This document shows, piece by piece, positions 55,235 to 63,228 of a stretch of 64,000 nt of DNA; position 1 is the first letter of the stretch, and the number at the start of each line of letters is the position of its first letter. The position numbers were made by a program, and so were the translations under genes. Where the stretch lies: the NCBI RefSeq assembly GCF_056746865.1, contig NZ_CM163382.1; one strand, written 5' to 3'. The notes beneath the pieces were generated by a model that had not been told where the DNA came from, searched no databases, and saw only the letters and a program-made list of their open reading frames with translations.

Positions 55235-55732
55235 TCAGTGCCACGATTTTTGCTTCTTCAGTGAATCGTATTGCTGTTCGCAGGATTCTCCTGCAATCCG
55301 ATACTTTTCAGCCTCAGCTGCTGTTGCGTTGTAAACTCGATTGCTTTCTTCAAGCATGTCGGCGAGCACACCGATGACCTTGCTGGCTGGCGTGCCAGTG
55401 GGGAAAGATCCGGTATAGTGTTCGGCGAGTCGCTTGGTTTTGTCAAGCTCGGCGCGCAGGCTGTCAGCAGCGGCATTAGCATGCTCAGCATCAACACGCG
55501 CCACATCGATACGGGATTGTGCTTCACGTTCAATTTGTGTTTTCTCCTGATCACGTTGTGACCTGGCCTTATCATCAGCCTGTTTCTGATCTTCCTGTGC
55601 CTGCGCATACCCGGCATCGTACTGGCGACTGCCGTGTATATTCCAGGCAACCACTCCGACGGTAAACAGAGCAGCAAGAATCACCACGATAAGCAGTTGT
55701 TTCCAATATGCTTTTACGAATGCCCAGATCAT
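55235..55732 (-). CDS. prophage i-spanin (Rz-like inner-membrane spanin)
   Basis: 165-aa ORF with one N-terminal TM helix then a charged coiled-coil body; start overlaps the endolysin stop (ATGA); last gene of the lysis cassette. Confidence 0.7.
55258..55506 (-). CDS. prophage o-spanin (Rz1-like outer-membrane lipoprotein) embedded in the +1 frame of the Rz-like gene
   Basis: ORF 55258-55677 in an alternate frame inside Rz; from ATG 55506 it encodes [17 protein letters not shown]... with lipobox LTA-C followed by a proline-rich short mature region; start codon choice tentative. Confidence 0.6.
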   Translation of the reverse strand: MWRVLMLSMLMPLLTACAPSLTKPSDSPNTIPDLSPLARQPARSSVCSPTCLKKAIEFTTQQQLRLKSIGLQENPANSNTIH

Positions 55733-56358
55733 ATAGCCAGCACCTTACTGGCAGTGACGTACCGCGCGCGCCGGTCGTCGATGCCGTTCCGGCCACCATT
55801 GATAATCAGAGTTACACGTGCAATATCACCGGTATACTTCATGCATCCTTTGCTGGCAAAGAACCACGCCGCGCTACGAGCCGCGTATTCGTCCTGCGCC
55901 AGCAGTTCAGGATTCTCCAGCAAGTCCACTTTCAAGCCGTTTCCGCAGTCACGATAGTTATTCAAACCGGTAATCTGGATAAGTCCGCGACCTCGGTAAT
56001 TCCAGCCATCGCCGGGGGCATTGTTCCCCATGCGTTTGCTGTACACCAGATTGGCAATCGCTCTCTGGCGCTCAGGTGGCAATGGTGGTTCACCAGCACG
56101 GCGCCCCAATGCGTTGGCCTGTCCCTGAGTGAGACGCCCAGCCCGAACGAAGTTAGCCAGTCCGCTGACGCTGTAGTTGAAATTTTCCTGCAACCGGGTG
56201 AAACCTCCAGACTCATGCCCGACCTGAGCAATAAACATTGCCTGATCTTCTGGTTTGCTGATACCAAACTCTTTCATCGCAGAAGTTATATGCGAGAACC
56301 AGCGTGCGGCAAGCGCCTCGCTAATACCAGCAGCTCGCTGGAATTGTTTAATCTCCAT
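55729..56358 (-). CDS. prophage endolysin, glycoside hydrolase family 19 (chitinase-like lysozyme)
   Basis: ORF 55729-56523; start placed at ATG 56358 preceded by GAGGT ([21 protein letters not shown]...), 209 aa; GH19/COG3179-like motifs ([21 protein letters not shown]). Confidence 0.8.
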
Positions 56359-56656
56359 GTTTAGACCTCGATACTTTGAAAATTTGAACGACGTTACCGC
56401 GCGTTTTAATAACCGCAGCGAGCATGACAGCGTTGATAATGACCTCAGATAAATCCACAGCCATTGGCGTGCGGAACCAGATTGCATAGGCAACACGAAC
56501 CGGAATACTGGCCGCAGCAACAATCAGGAAATAAGCAAGCCACCCCCCCCATCTTCGATGTTGAGATCCGTTACGCCGGAATGTGACAACACGAATTGCT
56601 ATGCCAGTACAAATAACTGCATTGGTGATAAGTAAAAACAGGTCATGCGTTACCAT
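56348..56656 (-). CDS. small membrane protein in lysis cassette (putative holin or antiholin, 2-3 TM)
   Basis: 102-aa hydrophobic ORF directly upstream of the endolysin gene and overlapping it by 11 nt; function assigned by position only. Confidence 0.5.
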
Positions 56657-57059
56657 CGTCTTTTCTCCCCGGAATTAACTCGCGTGGATTATCGGAACGG
56701 TGATAGAGCCAGATACCAATTCGCACTGCGACAATTGCTGATACGAATGCGCCAGCAGAGAAAACAATCCCTTTCTCGAACGAGTCCTGCGTGATGGTAG
56801 GGATCAGGCTGGCTATGCCGATAAGAATTGATGCTGCTGGTTTGTAAAAAAGAAGGCCGCAGAGAAAGCTAAGCATCGACAAAAGCACACGACGACGAAT
56901 GGGATACTCTACCGCAGAGGTAACAAAAATTACCGCTCCAGCCAAAGACCCCAAAGCAACCTCGGGAGGAACTCCTGCTATCACCGCCGCCAGAGAAGTC
57001 ATGCTAAGCCACTGATTCAAAGAATCACTGGTTGTCTGAATTGACATGATAAACACCAT
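56643..57059 (-). CDS. putative holin (multi-TM small membrane protein), first gene of lysis cassette
   Basis: 138-aa ORF with 3-4 predicted TM segments and a basic C-terminal tail; two Met codons within the first five (M1, M5); overlaps the next gene by 14 nt. Confidence 0.55.
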   Translation of the reverse strand: MVFIMSIQTTSDSLNQWLSMTSLAAVIAGVPPEVALGSLAGAVIFVTSAVEYPIRRRVLLSMLSFLCGLLFYKPAASILIGIASLIPTITQDSFEKGIVFSAGAFVSAIVAVRIGIWLYHRSDNPRELIPGRKDDGNA

Positions 57060-57187
57060 TTATTTCACATAAACAACTCCATTAAATAAATGTTTATCAT
57101 ACACAATAAACCATTTATGGATAATTATTACTCGTGATTTTTATGATTATTCGCGCATTTTTCTATCATTTTTATCCAGTGTGCCGT

Positions 57188-57211
57188 AAAACCACGTCCT
57201 TAAGGGCGTGG
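57188..57211 (-). terminator. hairpin terminator downstream of the tail fiber gene
   Basis: Minus strand: CCACGCCC-ttaa-GGACGTGG followed by TTTTAC; about 160 bp after the tail fiber stop. Confidence 0.5.
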
Positions 57212-57236
57212 ATGATGTCAACTGATGATGTCAACT
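57211..57236. repeat. perfect tandem direct repeat 2 x 13 bp (GATGATGTCAACT) in the tail fiber - holin intergenic region
   Basis: gatgatgtcaact gatgatgtcaact read directly from the sequence at 57211-57223 and 57224-57236. Confidence 0.7.
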
Positions 57237-57372
57237 ATTGGCTGGCTTTGACTGATATTGCAGGAGTTGTTGGATAAGATTTAAGTGACCGTCAAAGCGG
57301 TCACTTATGAGAAAAGGAAGTTAGACAAAGTGGCAAACAGGCTCATTGATGGCTACGTCAATGACCAAGGTT

Positions 57373-59775
57373 TCATTCAGACTCCAGCAACTCTATCCTG
57401 GCGAGAAGCGCTTCATATTTATCAAGTAATCGAGAGTAGTTCCTTCGTTGCATTGCAGCTTCCATTACCAACATTTCTTCATAACGAATGCCGTAACGGG
57501 AACCAGCTTCTATAGCAGGAGTGATTACCTCACCGGTTTCATCATCTATGACGGCAGGAGTGTCACCCCATTCATCATAACAGATGAAACCAAAGCGATG
57601 AGCATCAAGACCATGCCTTTCGAATGCCTCCACGTACCGTTGAGCAATGGCGCCGAAGTGCCAGCGGGCGCCATCAGCGCCTTTTTCTTTAATCCTATCC
57701 AGATACTTATACTGGACTAGCTGAACCTCTTCTGCGGCATCGAGAATGGCATCAGTCATTAGTAATGGGTCTGATTTGCAAATGGCATCTGACGTGATAG
57801 TGAACGCCGTTTGAGTGAATCCACCAGACCACGGAAACGAACTTGCCCCGCAAGGATAGGTATTTGCCGTGGCAGGACGTATTTGCTTCACAGCAAATAC
57901 GTGCGACGTCATTTCTGCTGTACCAGAACCCGTAACGCCGGGATCTCCACCAGAGACACGTAAAATCCCTGTAGGGACAGATGAGTCCGTCGATGAATAA
58001 AAGCGAATCTGCTGTGCTTCTGCAACACCAGGGTTACATAGCTTAATAGCTTTAGTTGTGAACGCATTAGTATCCGTATCAAATATCCAGTATCTGTTGT
58101 TTGAACCACCATCTATAATAACGTTCGCAAGAGATACACCAACTCGCTGTATATTAGAAATATTGTTAGCATTAGTACCAGCAGTTAACTGAATACCCCT
58201 TGTGCAATTATTTACACGCGAGTTACTAATAGTATTATTAGCAGCAAATCTAGTGCCAGCGGTATTTCCTGTCAGGAGAGTATGCGTAGTGTCCTTACTG
58301 AAGCCTGTCAATAACACCTCATTATTAGTGAACGTACCGTACTGAGCACATGATTTAAAACCGATATAAGGTGTGGTTAAATCCTCAGGAATACCATTCC
58401 ATACCATACAAAAGTTATCTGTAATTACACTATGGTTTCCTCCATTGTTAGACAAATCACCCAACTCTACAGCACTTATGGAAGTATTGAAGTGGTTATT
58501 TGTAACCTGGAACAGGTTACCAACATTGTTTTCAGAAACAACTCCGCGGCGACCAGCAATGATATGGTTACCGAAAACCACAACACCTTCGGTATCGTCA
58601 TGCGCGTACATGAAGGTGTCGAAGTTCTGATAAGAACCATTGACAATATTGATATTCTTTGTTGAGTACAGGTCGAATATTTTACCCATTCGATATGCTG
58701 GTACAGATGTTCCTCCACCAGTTACGTTAACGCCGTCAAATACACACTGACCAGCTCTGCTTAGCTTAAAGACAGTATCAAAAGAGGATTGAGTACCAGC
58801 ATCATTTGACACATCCAGGTCACGAACGATAAGTTGTCGGGCGTATTCGATTCCCCCTGTCCCTAAAAACGTAAGCGCAGTACCCTGAAGTTGCCCGGTA
58901 GCTTTTATCGTGAAATTACGTAAACCAACAGGTTTTCTTACTACAGTCGTACCCGAGTTATCAATGATAAGACCATATCCAGCAGCAAATTTTATTCCGC
59001 ATGTAGCCATGCTTACGCCAAAAACATCACTATAAAAATTAGTTACTGAGATGTCGCTTGAGCAGTTGTATATACGACGAAGCTTAATATCTAGACCAGT
59101 TTCCTTTGCTGCAGTAAAGGCATTGATCAGTGCCAAGGTATCATCAGCATCACCTCCAACAGCGCCAAAATCCTCAGGAGTGAGTGATTCCCTCATTTTA
59201 TCCTGGAACGTTCGGTATACTGCCCCATAACCATACTGAATAAACCAACCAAAACCACCAACAACCCCGGCGATTGCAGCATCGACATAATTACGCATTG
59301 AGCGATTATTTACAGCGTCCTGCTCAAGTGATGGATCTGCAAGGTTAGAAATTCTGTTTTGCTTTGCATCGTAATATTTTGCAAGCAAAGATGGTTTCAT
59401 CAATGCACGTCTGAACCACCCAAAACATTGCTGGATCAGCATCGTCAGGTAGTCAAAGGCATCTTCATGCACTTCGGGAAAAAACTTTCCCTGATTGCGA
59501 AGGTCTGTCTCCTGTACTACATCAAGCACACGATCTATCGTAATTCGCCATCCAGTAGCAAGCGGAGACGGAAGAACCACAGAACCGCCACTATAAGTGC
59601 CCGCCCCAGTTACCGTATAACCGGTATCCAGAACCAATTCTGTTACGTTCCCGTTCAGGTCAGACACCTGAACAACCAGGTCTGATTTTCTGAAAATTCG
59701 AAAAGTATACGGAAACGATGTCGTAACGCCGTTACCTGTGTATTCGTTGTGGTCAACTTCGGTTGAGACCGTCAT
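57373..59775 (-). CDS. prophage tail fiber/tailspike (N-terminal virion-attachment domain, central beta-helix-like domain, C-terminal intramolecular chaperone domain)
   Basis: 800-aa ORF preceded by GGAG; N-terminus has the tail-fiber motif ...NRISNLADPSLEQDAVN... (compare T7 gp17 RIVNLANAVDDRDAV); middle is Gly/Asn/Thr-rich repeat typical of beta-helix tailspikes; C-terminal ~130 aa resemble S74-type chaperone domains. Confidence 0.8.
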   Translation of the reverse strand: MTVSTEVDHNEYTGNGVTTSFPYTFRIFRKSDLVVQVSDLNGNVTELVLDTGYTVTGAGTYSGGSVVLPSPLATGWRITIDRVLDVVQETDLRNQGKFFPEVHEDAFDYLTMLIQQCFGWFRRALMKPSLLAKYYDAKQNRISNLADPSLEQDAVNNRSMRNYVDAAIAGVVGGFGWFIQYGYGAVYRTFQDKMRESLTPEDFGAVGGDADDTLALINAFTAAKETGLDIKLRRIYNCSSDISVTNFYSDVFGVSMATCGIKFAAGYGLIIDNSGTTVVRKPVGLRNFTIKATGQLQGTALTFLGTGGIEYARQLIVRDLDVSNDAGTQSSFDTVFKLSRAGQCVFDGVNVTGGGTSVPAYRMGKIFDLYSTKNINIVNGSYQNFDTFMYAHDDTEGVVVFGNHIIAGRRGVVSENNVGNLFQVTNNHFNTSISAVELGDLSNNGGNHSVITDNFCMVWNGIPEDLTTPYIGFKSCAQYGTFTNNEVLLTGFSKDTTHTLLTGNTAGTRFAANNTISNSRVNNCTRGIQLTAGTNANNISNIQRVGVSLANVIIDGGSNNRYWIFDTDTNAFTTKAIKLCNPGVAEAQQIRFYSSTDSSVPTGILRVSGGDPGVTGSGTAEMTSHVFAVKQIRPATANTYPCGASSFPWSGGFTQTAFTITSDAICKSDPLLMTDAILDAAEEVQLVQYKYLDRIKEKGADGARWHFGAIAQRYVEAFERHGLDAHRFGFICYDEWGDTPAVIDDETGEVITPAIEAGSRYGIRYEEMLVMEAAMQRRNYSRLLDKYEALLARIELLESE

Positions 59776-59956: not shown

Positions 59957-60229
59957 ATGGAGAAGATTAAGATGCAGCAGTATCACTATCCACTGGAAGA
60001 CGGATTTACCGAAAGGATTCACACGCCGGGAGGCGTCAGGTCACTGGTGGAGGGATCGCACTTGATGAAATTACTCCGGGATCTCGATAAGGATGGATTT
60101 AATGTCGATGGCCCACTTGCCGAACTGACTGCACTGATTAACTACGTCACCAGCTCACAGATGTCTATGCGGGATCTGCAAACACATCTCGACTATTGTG
60201 CCGAACAATTACGAAAACAAACCCGGTAA
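59957..60229 (+). CDS. small SOS-box-associated prophage protein of unknown function (90 aa, or 85 aa from ATG 59972 which has the better GGAGA Shine-Dalgarno)
   Basis: ORF in track; soluble, charged, no TM segment; LexA box overlaps its promoter region; convergent with the 98-aa membrane protein gene. Confidence 0.55.
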   Translation: MEKIKMQQYHYPLEDGFTERIHTPGGVRSLVEGSHLMKLLRDLDKDGFNVDGPLAELTALINYVTSSQMSMRDLQTHLDYCAEQLRKQTR

Positions 60230-60235
60230 ATTTAA

Positions 60236-60273
60236 AGGCCGCAAGAGCGGCCTGTGACATGTCACGCTCTTTT
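60236..60273. terminator. bidirectional terminator between the convergent small genes
   Basis: GGCCGC-aaga-GCGGCC hairpin then GTGACATGTCAC palindrome and CTCTTTTTC; T-rich on both strands (tttaaattt on the minus side). Confidence 0.55.
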
Positions 60274-60558
60274 TCTGAATGATAGCCATTCGAAAAATGA
60301 TGACATTCCACCGCAGACAATAGCAAAGATGATCCCACCAAAGAAGAGAAGGCCAGCCTGCCACCACTCCCACCGCCATACATCCACAGCGCCAACCATA
60401 CCAACAATCGCTCCAACAAATGGAATATAGCTCACGATGAAAGCAATGGGGGCTGCAATTATCCAGTGCAATCCCCACCATGATTCAAGCCCAGCCATAA
60501 TTGCTGCCAACTGAAAAAGACCAACGACGATATAAACAATGAATCCTATAGCTTGCAT
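60262..60558 (-). CDS. small 3-TM inner-membrane protein of unknown function (moron; candidate superinfection-exclusion or conversion protein)
   Basis: 98-aa ORF with AGGTGA Shine-Dalgarno; three hydrophobic helices, Trp-rich loop (VDVWRWEWWQAG), basic C-terminus FRKRA. Confidence 0.6.
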   Translation of the reverse strand: MQAIGFIVYIVVGLFQLAAIMAGLESWWGLHWIIAAPIAFIVSYIPFVGAIVGMVGAVDVWRWEWWQAGLLFFGGIIFAIVCGGMSSFFEWLSFRKRA

Positions 60559-60570
60559 GTAGTCACCTAT

Positions 60571-60744
60571 TTACCCAGTAAAAATCAGAGGCCTCCCCTC
60601 AATAAGGCTTGCAACAAGAACTATTCCCTGCACAACAAAGATGAACCAGCAAATAGCTTGAGTCTGAGGGTTAAGAAAATATTTGTAGCGGTCAATAAAT
60701 AACAACCCACCAGAAATTATCACACTCAAAATAATTAAAAACAC
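60571..60744 (-). CDS. possible 57-aa two-TM membrane peptide (GTG start), translationally coupled to the upstream virion protein gene
   Basis: Not in ORF track (under 60 aa). GTG 60744 is preceded by AAGGAAG overlapping the 824-aa gene stop; product (M)FLIILSVIISGGLLFIDRYKYFLNPQTQAICWFIFVVQGIVLVASLIEGRPLIFTG; same frame as the upstream gene. Confidence 0.35.
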   Translation of the reverse strand: MFLIILSVIISGGLLFIDRYKYFLNPQTQAICWFIFVVQGIVLVASLIEGRPLIFTG

Positions 60745-60753
60745 AACACTTCC

Positions 60754-63228
60754 TTATTGCGGAGTGACATCCTGAGGTCGCCACCAGTATGTCTGGTTAA
60801 ACTCTTTCTTCGAACGTTGCTCCATTTTACGCAAATAGCCTGGTGAAAAATACTCCTGCATCTGGTTAAAGATCATATGATCGAGAGCCGCCTTTAAGTA
60901 CCAGAGATTCGCACCTGGCATCAAACCTTTCCCCAGCTTCACCAGATCACCACCAGTCTGCTCACTCTTCCCTTCCACAGCATTTAACGGTATGCCCTGA
61001 GCAATCTTCACTACGTCATCAACCAGACCAGCTACCGGGCCAAGCATCGACGCCAGCGCGCCGCTTCCGTACCTAGTGTGATCTGACAATAAAAAGTCAC
61101 CGTAAAGGCCAAGACCACCACCTTTCAGTAGAGCACCAAGCCAAAATTTAGCAGCATCTTCTCCTGTCATCTCGCGAGGATTACGACCAGACGCAAGGTC
61201 GTTAAGTTGCTGCGACAAAGCGCCAAGAATGGTCGTACTGGCAATAAACGTCGCAATATATGCCGCACGCCCACCAGCAGACGGCATACCCATAGCGCGT
61301 GACCAGTGACGCATAACCACCGAGATAGGGAACGATTTAAACAGGAAAACACTTCTCGTTAATTCACCTTTCCATGTTCCACGCTGAATACCAGAACCGG
61401 TTATCAGTTGCTCACGTGCTCCCGGTGTAATAACAGCCATATCAACTTCTTCAGTTACGGCACCGAGCAGTTTACGCATTGCCTCAAATTTCACGCGTTC
61501 AGGCTCACCAAGATGTTTAACTGCTGAATCAGGGATACGCATAATGCTTTCCGGTGTCAGCATCGTATTATTGCCGTTCCCCCAGTCCTCCTGTTGCGCC
61601 AGCTTCCATACGCTCCAGTCTGTGTCAGTAATCCCTTTGCTTTTCAGGATACGAAAATCAGAATCATCGAGGCTACGAAGGTCTGGTGTCCGTGACACTA
61701 CTTCTCCCAGGCTTCCCATCATGGTTACGCCATAGGCGCGCTTGTGCGCATCTGACCATGCTGTAAGCCCACTGGCACGCATTACCGCCGTTGCAGCCCA
61801 ACGAGACACAGACGGCCCCATATTATCCATCGCCCAGCGGTTAACGCTGCCAAGTAGAGATTCCATCGCCAGACCAGCGCGGCGCGCCCGCGCAAGTTCT
61901 GTACGGTTCGTTGGGTCCATAGCTTCAAGCTGGTTGCGGAATAACTGGTTCATTGGAAGGTTGGTAACCTTCGCAGACAGATACATGGTTCCAAGATCAG
62001 AGAACGATGACAGCAACGCGGATCCGAGTCTGCTGGCAACCAGCCAGTTGCGGATATTGTCAGACCATCGCGCGATGTGCGGATTCGCTACAGGCTGTGT
62101 CTTTCCGGAAATAAAATTGTACAGATTCTCTGTGTTGTTCGCCAGCCGCTCGACTTTACCGGTTTTACTCGGGTTAGCTGTTGCCGTTTCTGCCTTCACC
62201 TGATCAAGAAGAGAGCGGAAAACATGATCGGGGTTTGGGCCATATGTTTCCACCAGTGCAATATCTTTACTGATACCTTCAAGGTGACCGACCATGATTT
62301 CCCATAGAGAGCGATCGCCATAAAGTTGCTGATATTGCAGATAGGAATCTGCATCTTTGAAATGTATCTGTCGTGATGCATTACCACGGTTAGCACGTGC
62401 GCCGGAAATTCGCATTCCGGTATCAGTAAGCTTATTCAGCCCACCAGTAGCGATCGTGTTATAAGCCTCTCCAAGAAATGCAGACAACTCGGCATCGTTC
62501 ATCAGTTGTCCATCGGCTCGGGTATAATATTTGCGATCCAGCTTACCTATAACATCGCTAACCCATTTATCTTTTGATACCGCCCCAACCTTTTCCATAG
62601 AATGATGTTGAGGGATCCCCCAGTTTTCGAGATAGCCAATGTCCCCACCAGCATCATTAAACCGGCGGCGCAGCAGCTCTGTAACTTCTCTCCACGCCTT
62701 AGCACCTTTTCTTGCTTTAGCATTGCCAGTATTTTGCCCCCGCATTTCATATACCAGGTCACGTACGCCCGCTTCATCTTCAAACAGACCAAAAAAGCGA
62801 GGATCAACTGCTTCGAATGCCTCCTGCAATTGACTCAATGCATAATCACGGGTGGCTTTTGTTCTGGATTCAACAGAGAGGAAATTCGATTTACCGTCTG
62901 CATTAAAAGCAATAGTACGGTTAAGAGCGCCAAGTTTCCCATCAGCCCCTTGATAGCTATTGATAAATTTATCCAATCTCTGACGTGCGGCTATAGTGAG
63001 GGCCACACGACGTTTCTTTAATGCCGCTTCTCGCTGTAATTCTTCAGATGCCAATTGTGCTGCACGATACAACCGTTCTGATTCGGAAAGTTGTCGCCAC
63101 GACATCGGGTCATCACGAGCAATGGAGCGCATATTTCGATAAATGCGGTCTTCAATGTTCTGTATTTCTCGCGCCGTTAACGTGCGCTGCGCCGCCTGCT
63201 GGACCGCTTGTATACATTCCTGTCTCAT
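60754..63228 (-). CDS. large prophage virion protein, function unknown (putative internal virion / DNA-ejection protein by position)
   Basis: 824-aa ORF; N-terminal coiled-coil, Gly-rich C-terminal region; directly upstream of the tail fiber module; no catalytic motif recognised. Confidence 0.6.
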   Translation of the reverse strand: MRQECIQAVQQAAQRTLTAREIQNIEDRIYRNMRSIARDDPMSWRQLSESERLYRAAQLASEELQREAALKKRRVALTIAARQRLDKFINSYQGADGKLGALNRTIAFNADGKSNFLSVESRTKATRDYALSQLQEAFEAVDPRFFGLFEDEAGVRDLVYEMRGQNTGNAKARKGAKAWREVTELLRRRFNDAGGDIGYLENWGIPQHHSMEKVGAVSKDKWVSDVIGKLDRKYYTRADGQLMNDAELSAFLGEAYNTIATGGLNKLTDTGMRISGARANRGNASRQIHFKDADSYLQYQQLYGDRSLWEIMVGHLEGISKDIALVETYGPNPDHVFRSLLDQVKAETATANPSKTGKVERLANNTENLYNFISGKTQPVANPHIARWSDNIRNWLVASRLGSALLSSFSDLGTMYLSAKVTNLPMNQLFRNQLEAMDPTNRTELARARRAGLAMESLLGSVNRWAMDNMGPSVSRWAATAVMRASGLTAWSDAHKRAYGVTMMGSLGEVVSRTPDLRSLDDSDFRILKSKGITDTDWSVWKLAQQEDWGNGNNTMLTPESIMRIPDSAVKHLGEPERVKFEAMRKLLGAVTEEVDMAVITPGAREQLITGSGIQRGTWKGELTRSVFLFKSFPISVVMRHWSRAMGMPSAGGRAAYIATFIASTTILGALSQQLNDLASGRNPREMTGEDAAKFWLGALLKGGGLGLYGDFLLSDHTRYGSGALASMLGPVAGLVDDVVKIAQGIPLNAVEGKSEQTGGDLVKLGKGLMPGANLWYLKAALDHMIFNQMQEYFSPGYLRKMEQRSKKEFNQTYWWRPQDVTPQ

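Follow-up and report, generated by a model that had tools for sequence, protein, structure and literature searches.

Does a reading frame that stays open behind the stop codon of a virion protein gene extend that protein by read-through, or does it belong to a gene of its own? The question is raised by a 64,000-nucleotide (nt) stretch of DNA (contig NZ_CM163382.1 of NCBI RefSeq assembly GCF_056746865.1; hereafter the window, meaning this stretch at its full length), which carries an epsilon15/phiV10-like prophage of the genus Uetakevirus. The gene of its 824-amino-acid (aa) virion/ejection protein (60754..63228, minus strand, reading direction 63228 to 60754) is followed by 60 codons that are open in the same frame and encode a hydrophobic peptide. 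An initial annotation of this DNA preferred a separately initiated membrane peptide and ranked a read-through extension anchoring the virion protein as less likely. Our comparison supports the former. The 60 open codons very probably represent a small gene of their own, with which the late (virion) operon ends on its 3' side, and the frame shared with the upstream gene is incidental. A conserved ribosome-binding site, a fixed start position, frame-specific selection, a two-helix model and the small genes of phiV10 and epsilon15 at the same site all speak for a separately initiated membrane peptide.

Anatomy of the junction

All junction features were read on the minus strand of the window. The 824-aa gene ends with ...GTC ACT CCG CAA TAA, and the base following its stop codon (60754..60756, read from the sequence) is a G. 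Beyond the stop, the same frame continues as GGA AGT GTT GTG (60744) TTT TTA up to a TAA at 60573-60571. The 60 open codons described in the initial annotation are thus present, and they consist of three spacer codons and a 57-codon open reading frame (ORF) that starts with the GTG at 60744-60742. The Shine-Dalgarno sequence AAGGAAG, proposed to overlap the stop, is likewise found at 60749..60755 (read as 60755-60749) on the basis of sequence and duplex energy. Comparison of TAAGGAAGT with the Shine-Dalgarno consensus TAAGGAGGT gives a match at eight of nine positions, and the computed duplex of the window's Shine-Dalgarno sequence with the 16S 3' end amounts to -9.4 kcal/mol. The same calculation gives -12.2 and -12.7 kcal/mol for the homologues in Salmonella and Klebsiella, respectively. 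Only the distance to the start codon had to be revised: the GTG was placed 6 nt further on, and actually lies 9 nt past the stop and 4 nt past AAGGAAG.

From base composition, the chance of 60 stop-free codons is about 0.03-0.06 (our own arithmetic rather than the output of a tool), and a downstream gene shares the frame of its neighbor by chance one time in three. Since openness and frame are just mildly unusual when the sequence is considered alone, the case for a real ORF is carried by comparative evidence.

A conserved gene selected as a protein

The 57-codon gene (60571..60744, minus strand; GTG start 60744-60742, TAA 60573-60571) is supported by the ORF list, by homologues and by the ratio of nonsynonymous to synonymous substitution rates (dN/dS). 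Its product has the sequence MFLIILSVIISGGLLFIDRYKYFLNPQTQAICWFIFVVQGIVLVASLIEGRPLIFTG. A search of 5.8 billion proteins revealed a family of 13 clusters (56-58 aa, 74-98% identity) in E. coli, Citrobacter, Klebsiella, Salmonella and Enterobacter, the alignment of which has 29 invariant columns, including a turn D-R-Y-K-Y-F-L and a second-helix motif C-W-F-x-F-x-V-Q-G. An exhaustive profile search of 1.8 billion representatives yielded three 50%-identity clusters in total, two of them new and more divergent; two further matches were repetitive proteins and were treated as artefacts. With metagenome members included, the family spans about 50-98% identity. Its members directly follow a homologue of the 824-aa protein in every genomic context fetched. 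The ORF is present in approximately 204 of 5426 complete E. coli genomes (about 4%), and it is intact in every surveyed locus with the gene arrangement of the window (cassette A, described below) that is free of a contig-end cut.

Between genera, the dN/dS of the 57-aa gene (Nei-Gojobori method) ranges from 0.10 to 0.28. In a control based on the proportions of nonsynonymous and synonymous differences (pN/pS), the ORF frame gives 0.26 versus 1.1 and 2.3 in the other two sense frames. The ORF frame is also the only one that is stop-free in all six lineages compared, and the variable columns are distributed over codon positions 1, 2 and 3 as 19, 15 and 37. On these comparative grounds, the 57-aa ORF is a real, conserved gene that is selected as a protein, independent of the upstream frame. 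An antisense ORF at 60553-60702 (plus strand) was rejected, as every antisense frame has stops in homologues; one antisense frame with a pN/pS of 0.35 corresponds to the usual shared-wobble artefact and not to a second gene. The synonymous divergence (dS) of the 57-aa gene (60571-60744) is 0.46-0.98 versus 1.3-2.4 for the adjacent 900 nt of the 824-aa gene (60757-61656) in the same genome pairs (the window against our loci L006, L008, L010, L011 and L012), with just about 37 synonymous sites in the 57-aa gene. This difference suggests either a more recent horizontal exchange of the cassette or an extra constraint on its synonymous sites.

Against this background, a chance open frame or a decaying, untranslated remnant is hardly credible. 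It is true that the chance calculated above is appreciable, that the protein belongs to no Pfam or PHROG family and that the NCBI Prokaryotic Genome Annotation Pipeline (PGAP) leaves the ORF uncalled in both RefSeq prophage copies inspected, among them that of the closest RefSeq genome (FT130), which counts against a functional gene. Opposed to this are purifying selection in one specific frame across genera, the conservation of length and start position, the presence of a junction ribosome-binding site throughout the lineages and the intactness of the ORF in the cassette A loci. The protein is already present at NCBI as 'hypothetical protein', and the matched region of phage YDC107_2 is annotated as 'putative membrane protein'.

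The initial description of a strongly hydrophobic two-helix peptide agrees both with the grand average of hydropathy (1.31) and with the helical hairpin modeled by AlphaFold2 from the family alignment, in which helices at residues 2-20 and 26-49 are joined by a short loop (mean predicted local distance difference test score 77.6). Helix 1, which is also the first predicted transmembrane (TM) segment (residues 2-20; 60685..60741, minus strand), reaches a hydropathy of 2.1-3.0 over residues 6-13. The conserved basic/aromatic turn D18-R-Y-K-Y-F-L24 plus residue 25 (60670..60693, minus strand) emerges from the family alignment, with D18, Y20, K21, Y22, F23 and L24 invariant and R19 nearly so, and AlphaFold2 models residues 21-25 as non-helical. 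Helix 2, the second predicted TM segment according to the AlphaFold2 model (residues 26-49; 60598..60669, minus strand), contains the second-helix motif with invariant C32, W33, F34, F36, V38, Q39 and G40. Scans against Pfam, PHROGs, NCBIfam and PADLOC assigned the peptide to no family, and the sole match, to phrog_17645, was not significant (E=0.064). Neither a PDB sequence search nor a Foldseek comparison with viral models gave a significant match to the peptide; empty structure searches are expected because it is a bare helical hairpin.

Separate initiation versus read-through

We have compared the junction in nine lineages of the 57-aa family. In E. coli (start codon GTG, or TTG in L063/L065), in three Salmonella/Citrobacter lineages (TTG) and in Enterobacter (GTG), a gap of 9 nt separates a TAA stop from the start codon, and the small gene is in frame with the 824-aa gene. 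The gap behind the TAA is 10 nt in Klebsiella oxytoca (L006/L007, ATG) and in the metagenomic locus L094 (TTG), and 11 nt behind a TAG in the metagenomic loci L095/L096 (TTG). In these last three lineages the small gene is out of frame and the continuation of the upstream frame stops after 27, 20 and 9 codons, respectively; the peptide is conserved there. Read-through is disfavored because the peptide is conserved though out of frame in three of the nine lineages. As a check, the initial annotation had proposed to follow the frame and the stop codon in homologous prophages. The stop codon is indeed retained, as TAA in all surveyed loci but L095/L096, while conservation of the frame is limited to six of the nine lineages. 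Loss of the frame among homologues was an outcome that the initial annotation itself had named as a refutation, and it tells against read-through.

The position of the start codon is fixed, but the codon itself alternates between GTG, TTG and ATG, and even inside E. coli GTG has changed to TTG. All nine lineages have a purine-rich ribosome-binding site on the upstream stop or adjacent to it, which reads TAAGGAG(G) in six of them; the motif of E. coli is TAAGGAAG, and weaker or displaced motifs occur in L094 (TAATGGAGG) and L095/L096 (TAGGAGAG). The three spacer codons vary freely beyond the needs of the ribosome-binding site. The junction has no Rfam match, and its predicted fold is non-significant (z = -1.19).

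Other cassettes at the same position are informative as well. In phiV10 a second in-frame stop follows the first (TAA GGA TGA), in 65FD and L005 the small gene is out of frame, and in epsilon15 the start overlaps the stop (ATGA). Locus L093 has an unrelated lipoprotein gene at the same 9-nt in-frame spacing, which remains in frame for 129 codons. Because this unrelated gene shares it, the 9-nt in-frame spacing is a property of the junction design. The design, TAAGGA followed by 6 nt and a start codon, is common to unrelated cassettes, such as that of phiV10 p21, which has a TGA as second codon behind the stop. The shared frame is a by-product of this design and no recoding device.

Read-through of the 824-aa stop, programmed or leaky, would add a 60-residue hydrophobic tail, by which some of the ejection protein molecules would become membrane-anchored. 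A known counterpart is the A1 protein of phage Qbeta, a stop-codon read-through product, and the window resembles such an extension in having an in-frame ORF past the stop of a virion protein gene. What favors it is the shared frame of peptide and upstream gene, seen in the window and in six of the nine lineages, with stop-free spacer codons. The retention of the 9-nt spacing in those six weighs against an entirely separate gene and leaves a slight chance of rare read-through there. Nevertheless, we consider the extension extremely improbable. The 57-aa gene differs from read-through extensions in a frame that is not conserved among homologues (gaps of 9, 10 and 11 nt), in initiation signals of its own, in a stop of the UAA-G type rather than a leaky UGA, and in that no stimulatory RNA element was found. 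In E. coli, few signals terminate translation as efficiently as UAA followed by G. The unconserved spacer codons, the second stop, frame change or overlap in other cassettes and the lipoprotein gene with identical spacing add to these differences.

For the separately initiated peptide, ribosomes would start at GTG 60744, either de novo on the strong Shine-Dalgarno sequence or by a restart after terminating 9 nt upstream (translational coupling), and the weak GTG/TTG starts would result in a modest output. The helical hairpin would then insert into the inner membrane. According to the positive-inside rule, the turn residues R19 and K21 would be on the cytoplasmic side and both short termini in the periplasm.

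An interchangeable cassette at the end of the late operon

We surveyed 86 loci sharing the conserved end of the 824-aa gene and found several alternative cassettes between this end and a palindrome with adjoining terminator, with three main types in E. coli. Cassette A consists of the 57-aa gene and a 98-aa gene, and its stop-to-palindrome distance of 490-491 nt occurs in 34 of the 86 loci; in these, the second ORF encodes 98 aa in 29 loci, 96 aa in one and 118-149 aa in four. In total, 46 loci have the 57-aa gene directly behind the stop. Cassette B (about 26 loci, approximately 159 nt) encodes phiV10 p21, a 46-aa protein with two TM segments. Cassette C (nine loci, 598 nt) combines a 41/43-aa pair with a 138-aa lipoprotein, and cassette D (a single locus, L093) has a lipoprotein gene alone.

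In cassette C, as read in L005 (1545-1725), an ATG by the ribosome-binding site and a hydrophobic helix are found in the 41-aa ORF, and a turn and second helix matching the 57-aa profile (21 bits) are found in another frame, in the 43-aa ORF. The same arrangement occurs in L021, L042, L048, L050, L052, L054, L072 and L074, with a lipoprotein gene of 126-138 aa as the next gene. Cassette C thus appears to contain a divergent relative of the 57-aa gene that has undergone a frameshift.

The second gene of cassette A in the window encodes a 98-aa multi-pass hydrophobic protein (60262..60558, minus strand; phrog_3075) with a ribosome-binding site AGGTGA at 60568-60563. It lies 12 nt from the 57-aa gene, and its homologues are all annotated as 'hypothetical'. 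Outside the genus of E. coli the genes after the 57-aa gene differ, so that the latter represents a module in its own right.

The distal cassette boundary coincides with a perfect 12-bp palindrome, GTGACATGTCAC (60254..60265), just 5' of a terminator hairpin. Of 98 fetched loci, including epsilon15, phiV10, Klebsiella, Salmonella and Enterobacter, 84 contain a single copy of this palindrome, with zero occurrences expected by chance in the window; it is conserved regardless of the cassette ahead of it. Wherever its position was read, it is at the distal cassette end (e.g., L013:7518-7529, L001:3705-3716 and L006:3550-3561). The last cassette gene terminates with the TGA of this palindrome in the window (the 98-aa gene), in epsilon15 and in L005. 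On the distal side, the palindrome marks the recombination boundary, and it is a candidate protein-binding site or part of a bidirectional terminator. The adjoining rho-independent terminator, AGGCCGC-TCTT-GCGGCCT with a T-rich tail (60236..60253, minus strand), ends the late-operon segment with the cassette. The same terminator element is annotated in phiV10 and epsilon15.

Small genes at the position of the 57-aa gene have thus been annotated before. Epsilon15 gp18 (NP_848226) is a 64-aa two-TM peptide, the ATG of which overlaps the gp17 stop, and phiV10 p21 (YP_512275) is annotated as 'putative integral membrane protein, two predicted transmembrane helices'. Similar to the 57-aa gene, both directly follow a gp17-type gene on the same strand, ahead of the palindrome and the terminator. 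They belong to the same size class (46-64 aa), have two hydrophobic helices and have their initiation signals (ribosome-binding site and start codon) located at the upstream stop or overlapping it, yet with junctions that differ in the overlap of epsilon15 and the second in-frame stop of phiV10. In our literature search, no functional study was found for either gp18 or p21. No sequence similarity to the 57-aa family is detectable (hhalign probability of 0.3% for each of the two), so membership is positional and architectural only; p21 belongs to phrog_7892, the 57-aa protein to no PHROG. The more distantly related BcepC6B shares the virion module, but there gp17 is directly followed by the tail-fiber gene, with no small gene between them. 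This indicates that the small gene is not a core virion component. As read from these gene arrangements, the 57-aa gene sits in a recombination slot holding interchangeable small two-helix peptides, some of them with extra membrane proteins or lipoproteins.

The prophage and its ejection protein

The taxonomic placement of the prophage is supported by a megablast search with the region, which matched phiV10, O157 typing phages and hundreds of E. coli chromosomes. The 824-aa protein matches phrog_684 ('virion structural protein') over its full length with 1286 bits and shares 28% identity end to end with epsilon15 gp17 (E=3e-109). By this homology it is the counterpart of phiV10 p20 and epsilon15 gp17 and is assigned to the internal virion protein D (T7 gp16) class of ejection proteins, the family in which epsilon15 gp17 was placed by Hardies et al. 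(PMC4819975). When its C-terminal 299 aa were used to fetch 80 IMG/VR loci, this region proved to be 96-100% identical among them.

Convergent with the cassette lies a gp19-like gene of 90 aa (59957-60229, plus strand; phrog_450), a homologue of epsilon15 gp19. The C-terminal part of its product matches the anti-repressor family phrog_1760 (E=5.5e-07). The gp19 homologue of phiV10 has a Bro-N antirepressor gene inserted next to it, and the layout of this region resembles that of P22 immI/sieA. The tailspike gene (57373-59775, minus strand) encodes a C-terminal Peptidase_S74 chaperone domain. The lysis cassette (55235-57059, minus strand), with two Pfam holins (PF16931 and PF05449), a GH19 endolysin and a DUF2514 protein, directly follows the tailspike gene; the O-antigen acyltransferase gene of phiV10 and E. 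coli FT130 is absent here (57060-57372).

Two records deposited as E. coli 'plasmids' are of Uetakevirus size, namely NZ_CP079768.1 (41,027 bp; SF10) and NZ_CP076267.1 (38,709 bp; NADC1036), and NADC1036 has a chromosomal copy as well (NZ_CP076264.1). Both are probably circular assemblies of phage genomes that had been excised or were replicating. In the metagenomic contig of L094 (SRR23994559, 3020-5209), a 113-aa ORF and a terminase-like gene come after the 824-aa gene and its neighbor, a divergent 58-aa homologue, with all four on one strand. The terminase-like gene, a weak match to PF22530, stands in place of the tailspike region, and L094 may be a differently arranged or permuted relative.

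Candidate roles of the peptide

By analogy with known systems, we tentatively propose that the 57-aa peptide has a dispensable accessory role at the envelope, for which blocking DNA delivery by superinfecting relatives, like P22 SieA or HK97 gp15, would be the most plausible activity; the assignment is possible rather than probable. Such a role is favored because the slot is hypervariable between conserved flanks, also houses lipoproteins and membrane proteins, and is dispensable in relatives. It is further favored because the slot adjoins a membrane-inserting ejection protein and antirepressor-like genes, mirroring the order gene 16-sieA-immI-gene 9 of P22. SieA is an inner-membrane superinfection-exclusion protein that blocks the gp16/gp20 ejection-protein conduit of related phages (PMC10883804). 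Similar to the 57-aa peptide, SieA is a membrane protein encoded beside the gene of a membrane-associated ejection protein (P22 gene 16). In P22, the ejection genes and the tailspike gene flank a variable region that contains sieA as well as antirepressor genes, and the Uetakevirus layout of gp17, small TM gene, gp19/Bro-N antirepressor-like genes and tailspike is similar. SieA differs, however, in its length (162-164 aa), its three predicted TM segments, its orientation on the strand opposite gene 16 and its own promoter, and hhalign gives a probability of 0.1% for a relation with the 57-aa family.

Several observations weigh against an exclusion function. A consensus scan of the minus strand at 60750-61300 detected no sigma-70-like promoter, with the limit that a weak or non-consensus site might escape such a scan; a -10-like TAAAAT about 75 nt upstream was seen by eye, has no acceptable -35 and was not counted. 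Expression in the lysogen, needed for a classical exclusion protein, is therefore unsupported. Moreover, the 57-aa gene is co-oriented and probably coupled with the late genes, whereas sieA lies on the opposite strand with its own promoter. Comparisons with SieA, the PADLOC defence models, Pfam and NCBIfam also revealed no relative of the peptide. Another parallel in gene arrangement is the moron type of HK97 gp15, reportedly a small inner-membrane exclusion protein encoded inside the late operon. Like the 57-aa gene, morons of this type are said to be small membrane protein genes that are co-oriented in the virion operon, variable among relatives and outside the virion module. They reportedly have their own promoter and terminator, whereas for the 57-aa gene no promoter was found and the ribosome-binding site overlaps the upstream stop.

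Tight linkage to the ejection-protein gene, and probable translational coupling with it, would bring about production together with the late proteins, and some small two-TM gene is present at this site in every Uetakevirus examined. Both points fit a cofactor of the 824-aa protein in virion assembly or ejection, either as a chaperone for its hydrophobic C-terminal region or as a co-packaged and ejected component. We regard this as unlikely, given that near-identical C-termini of the 824-aa protein (over the 299 aa mentioned above) coexist with mutually dissimilar cassettes, that BcepC6B has no such gene and that the frameshifted-looking cassette type in nine loci, together with one truncated p21 copy, suggests dispensability. 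Still less can be said for a lysis-related membrane protein (class II holin, pinholin or antiholin), which we judge very unlikely. The small size, the two hydrophobic helices and the probable late expression would suit such a protein, and the neighboring 98-aa protein has a sub-threshold match to Phage_holin_5_2 (E=0.027, 15.2 bits versus a cut-off of 29.2 bits). However, a complete lysis cassette is located 3.5 kb away beyond the tailspike gene, and the 57-aa protein matches no holin family in Pfam or PHROGs and has no charged C-terminal tail typical of holins. The 57-aa family also has no similarity in hhalign to epsilon15 gp22, a two-TM alpha-polymerase inhibitor.

Implications for epsilon15-like phages

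The 57-aa gene belongs to a sequence-distinct family among the small two-TM genes already annotated at this position in phiV10 and epsilon15. About 4% of complete E. coli genomes carry it, although it belongs to no Pfam or PHROG family and is left uncalled by PGAP in the RefSeq copies inspected. The case also teaches that an ORF in frame after a stop codon is, by itself, no evidence of read-through.

In a wider and more speculative proposal, enterobacterial Uetakeviruses would all reserve the last position of the ejection operon for a fast-swapping, coupled two-helix micro-protein, drawn from at least three dissimilar families that are swapped between two conserved boundaries. These micro-proteins might form a new class of membrane effectors directed at the ejection apparatus, for example late- or lysogen-expressed blockers of the gp15-gp17 conduit of superinfectors, and cassette swaps would then reflect an arms race of exclusion and escape. 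To our knowledge, and as far as our literature searches could find, no exclusion system besides O-antigen modification is known for epsilon15-like phages. With its conserved boundaries and its swappable small membrane peptides and, in some cases, lipoproteins beside a membrane-inserting ejection protein, the slot is a candidate hot-spot of envelope-level phage-phage conflict in epsilon15-like phages.

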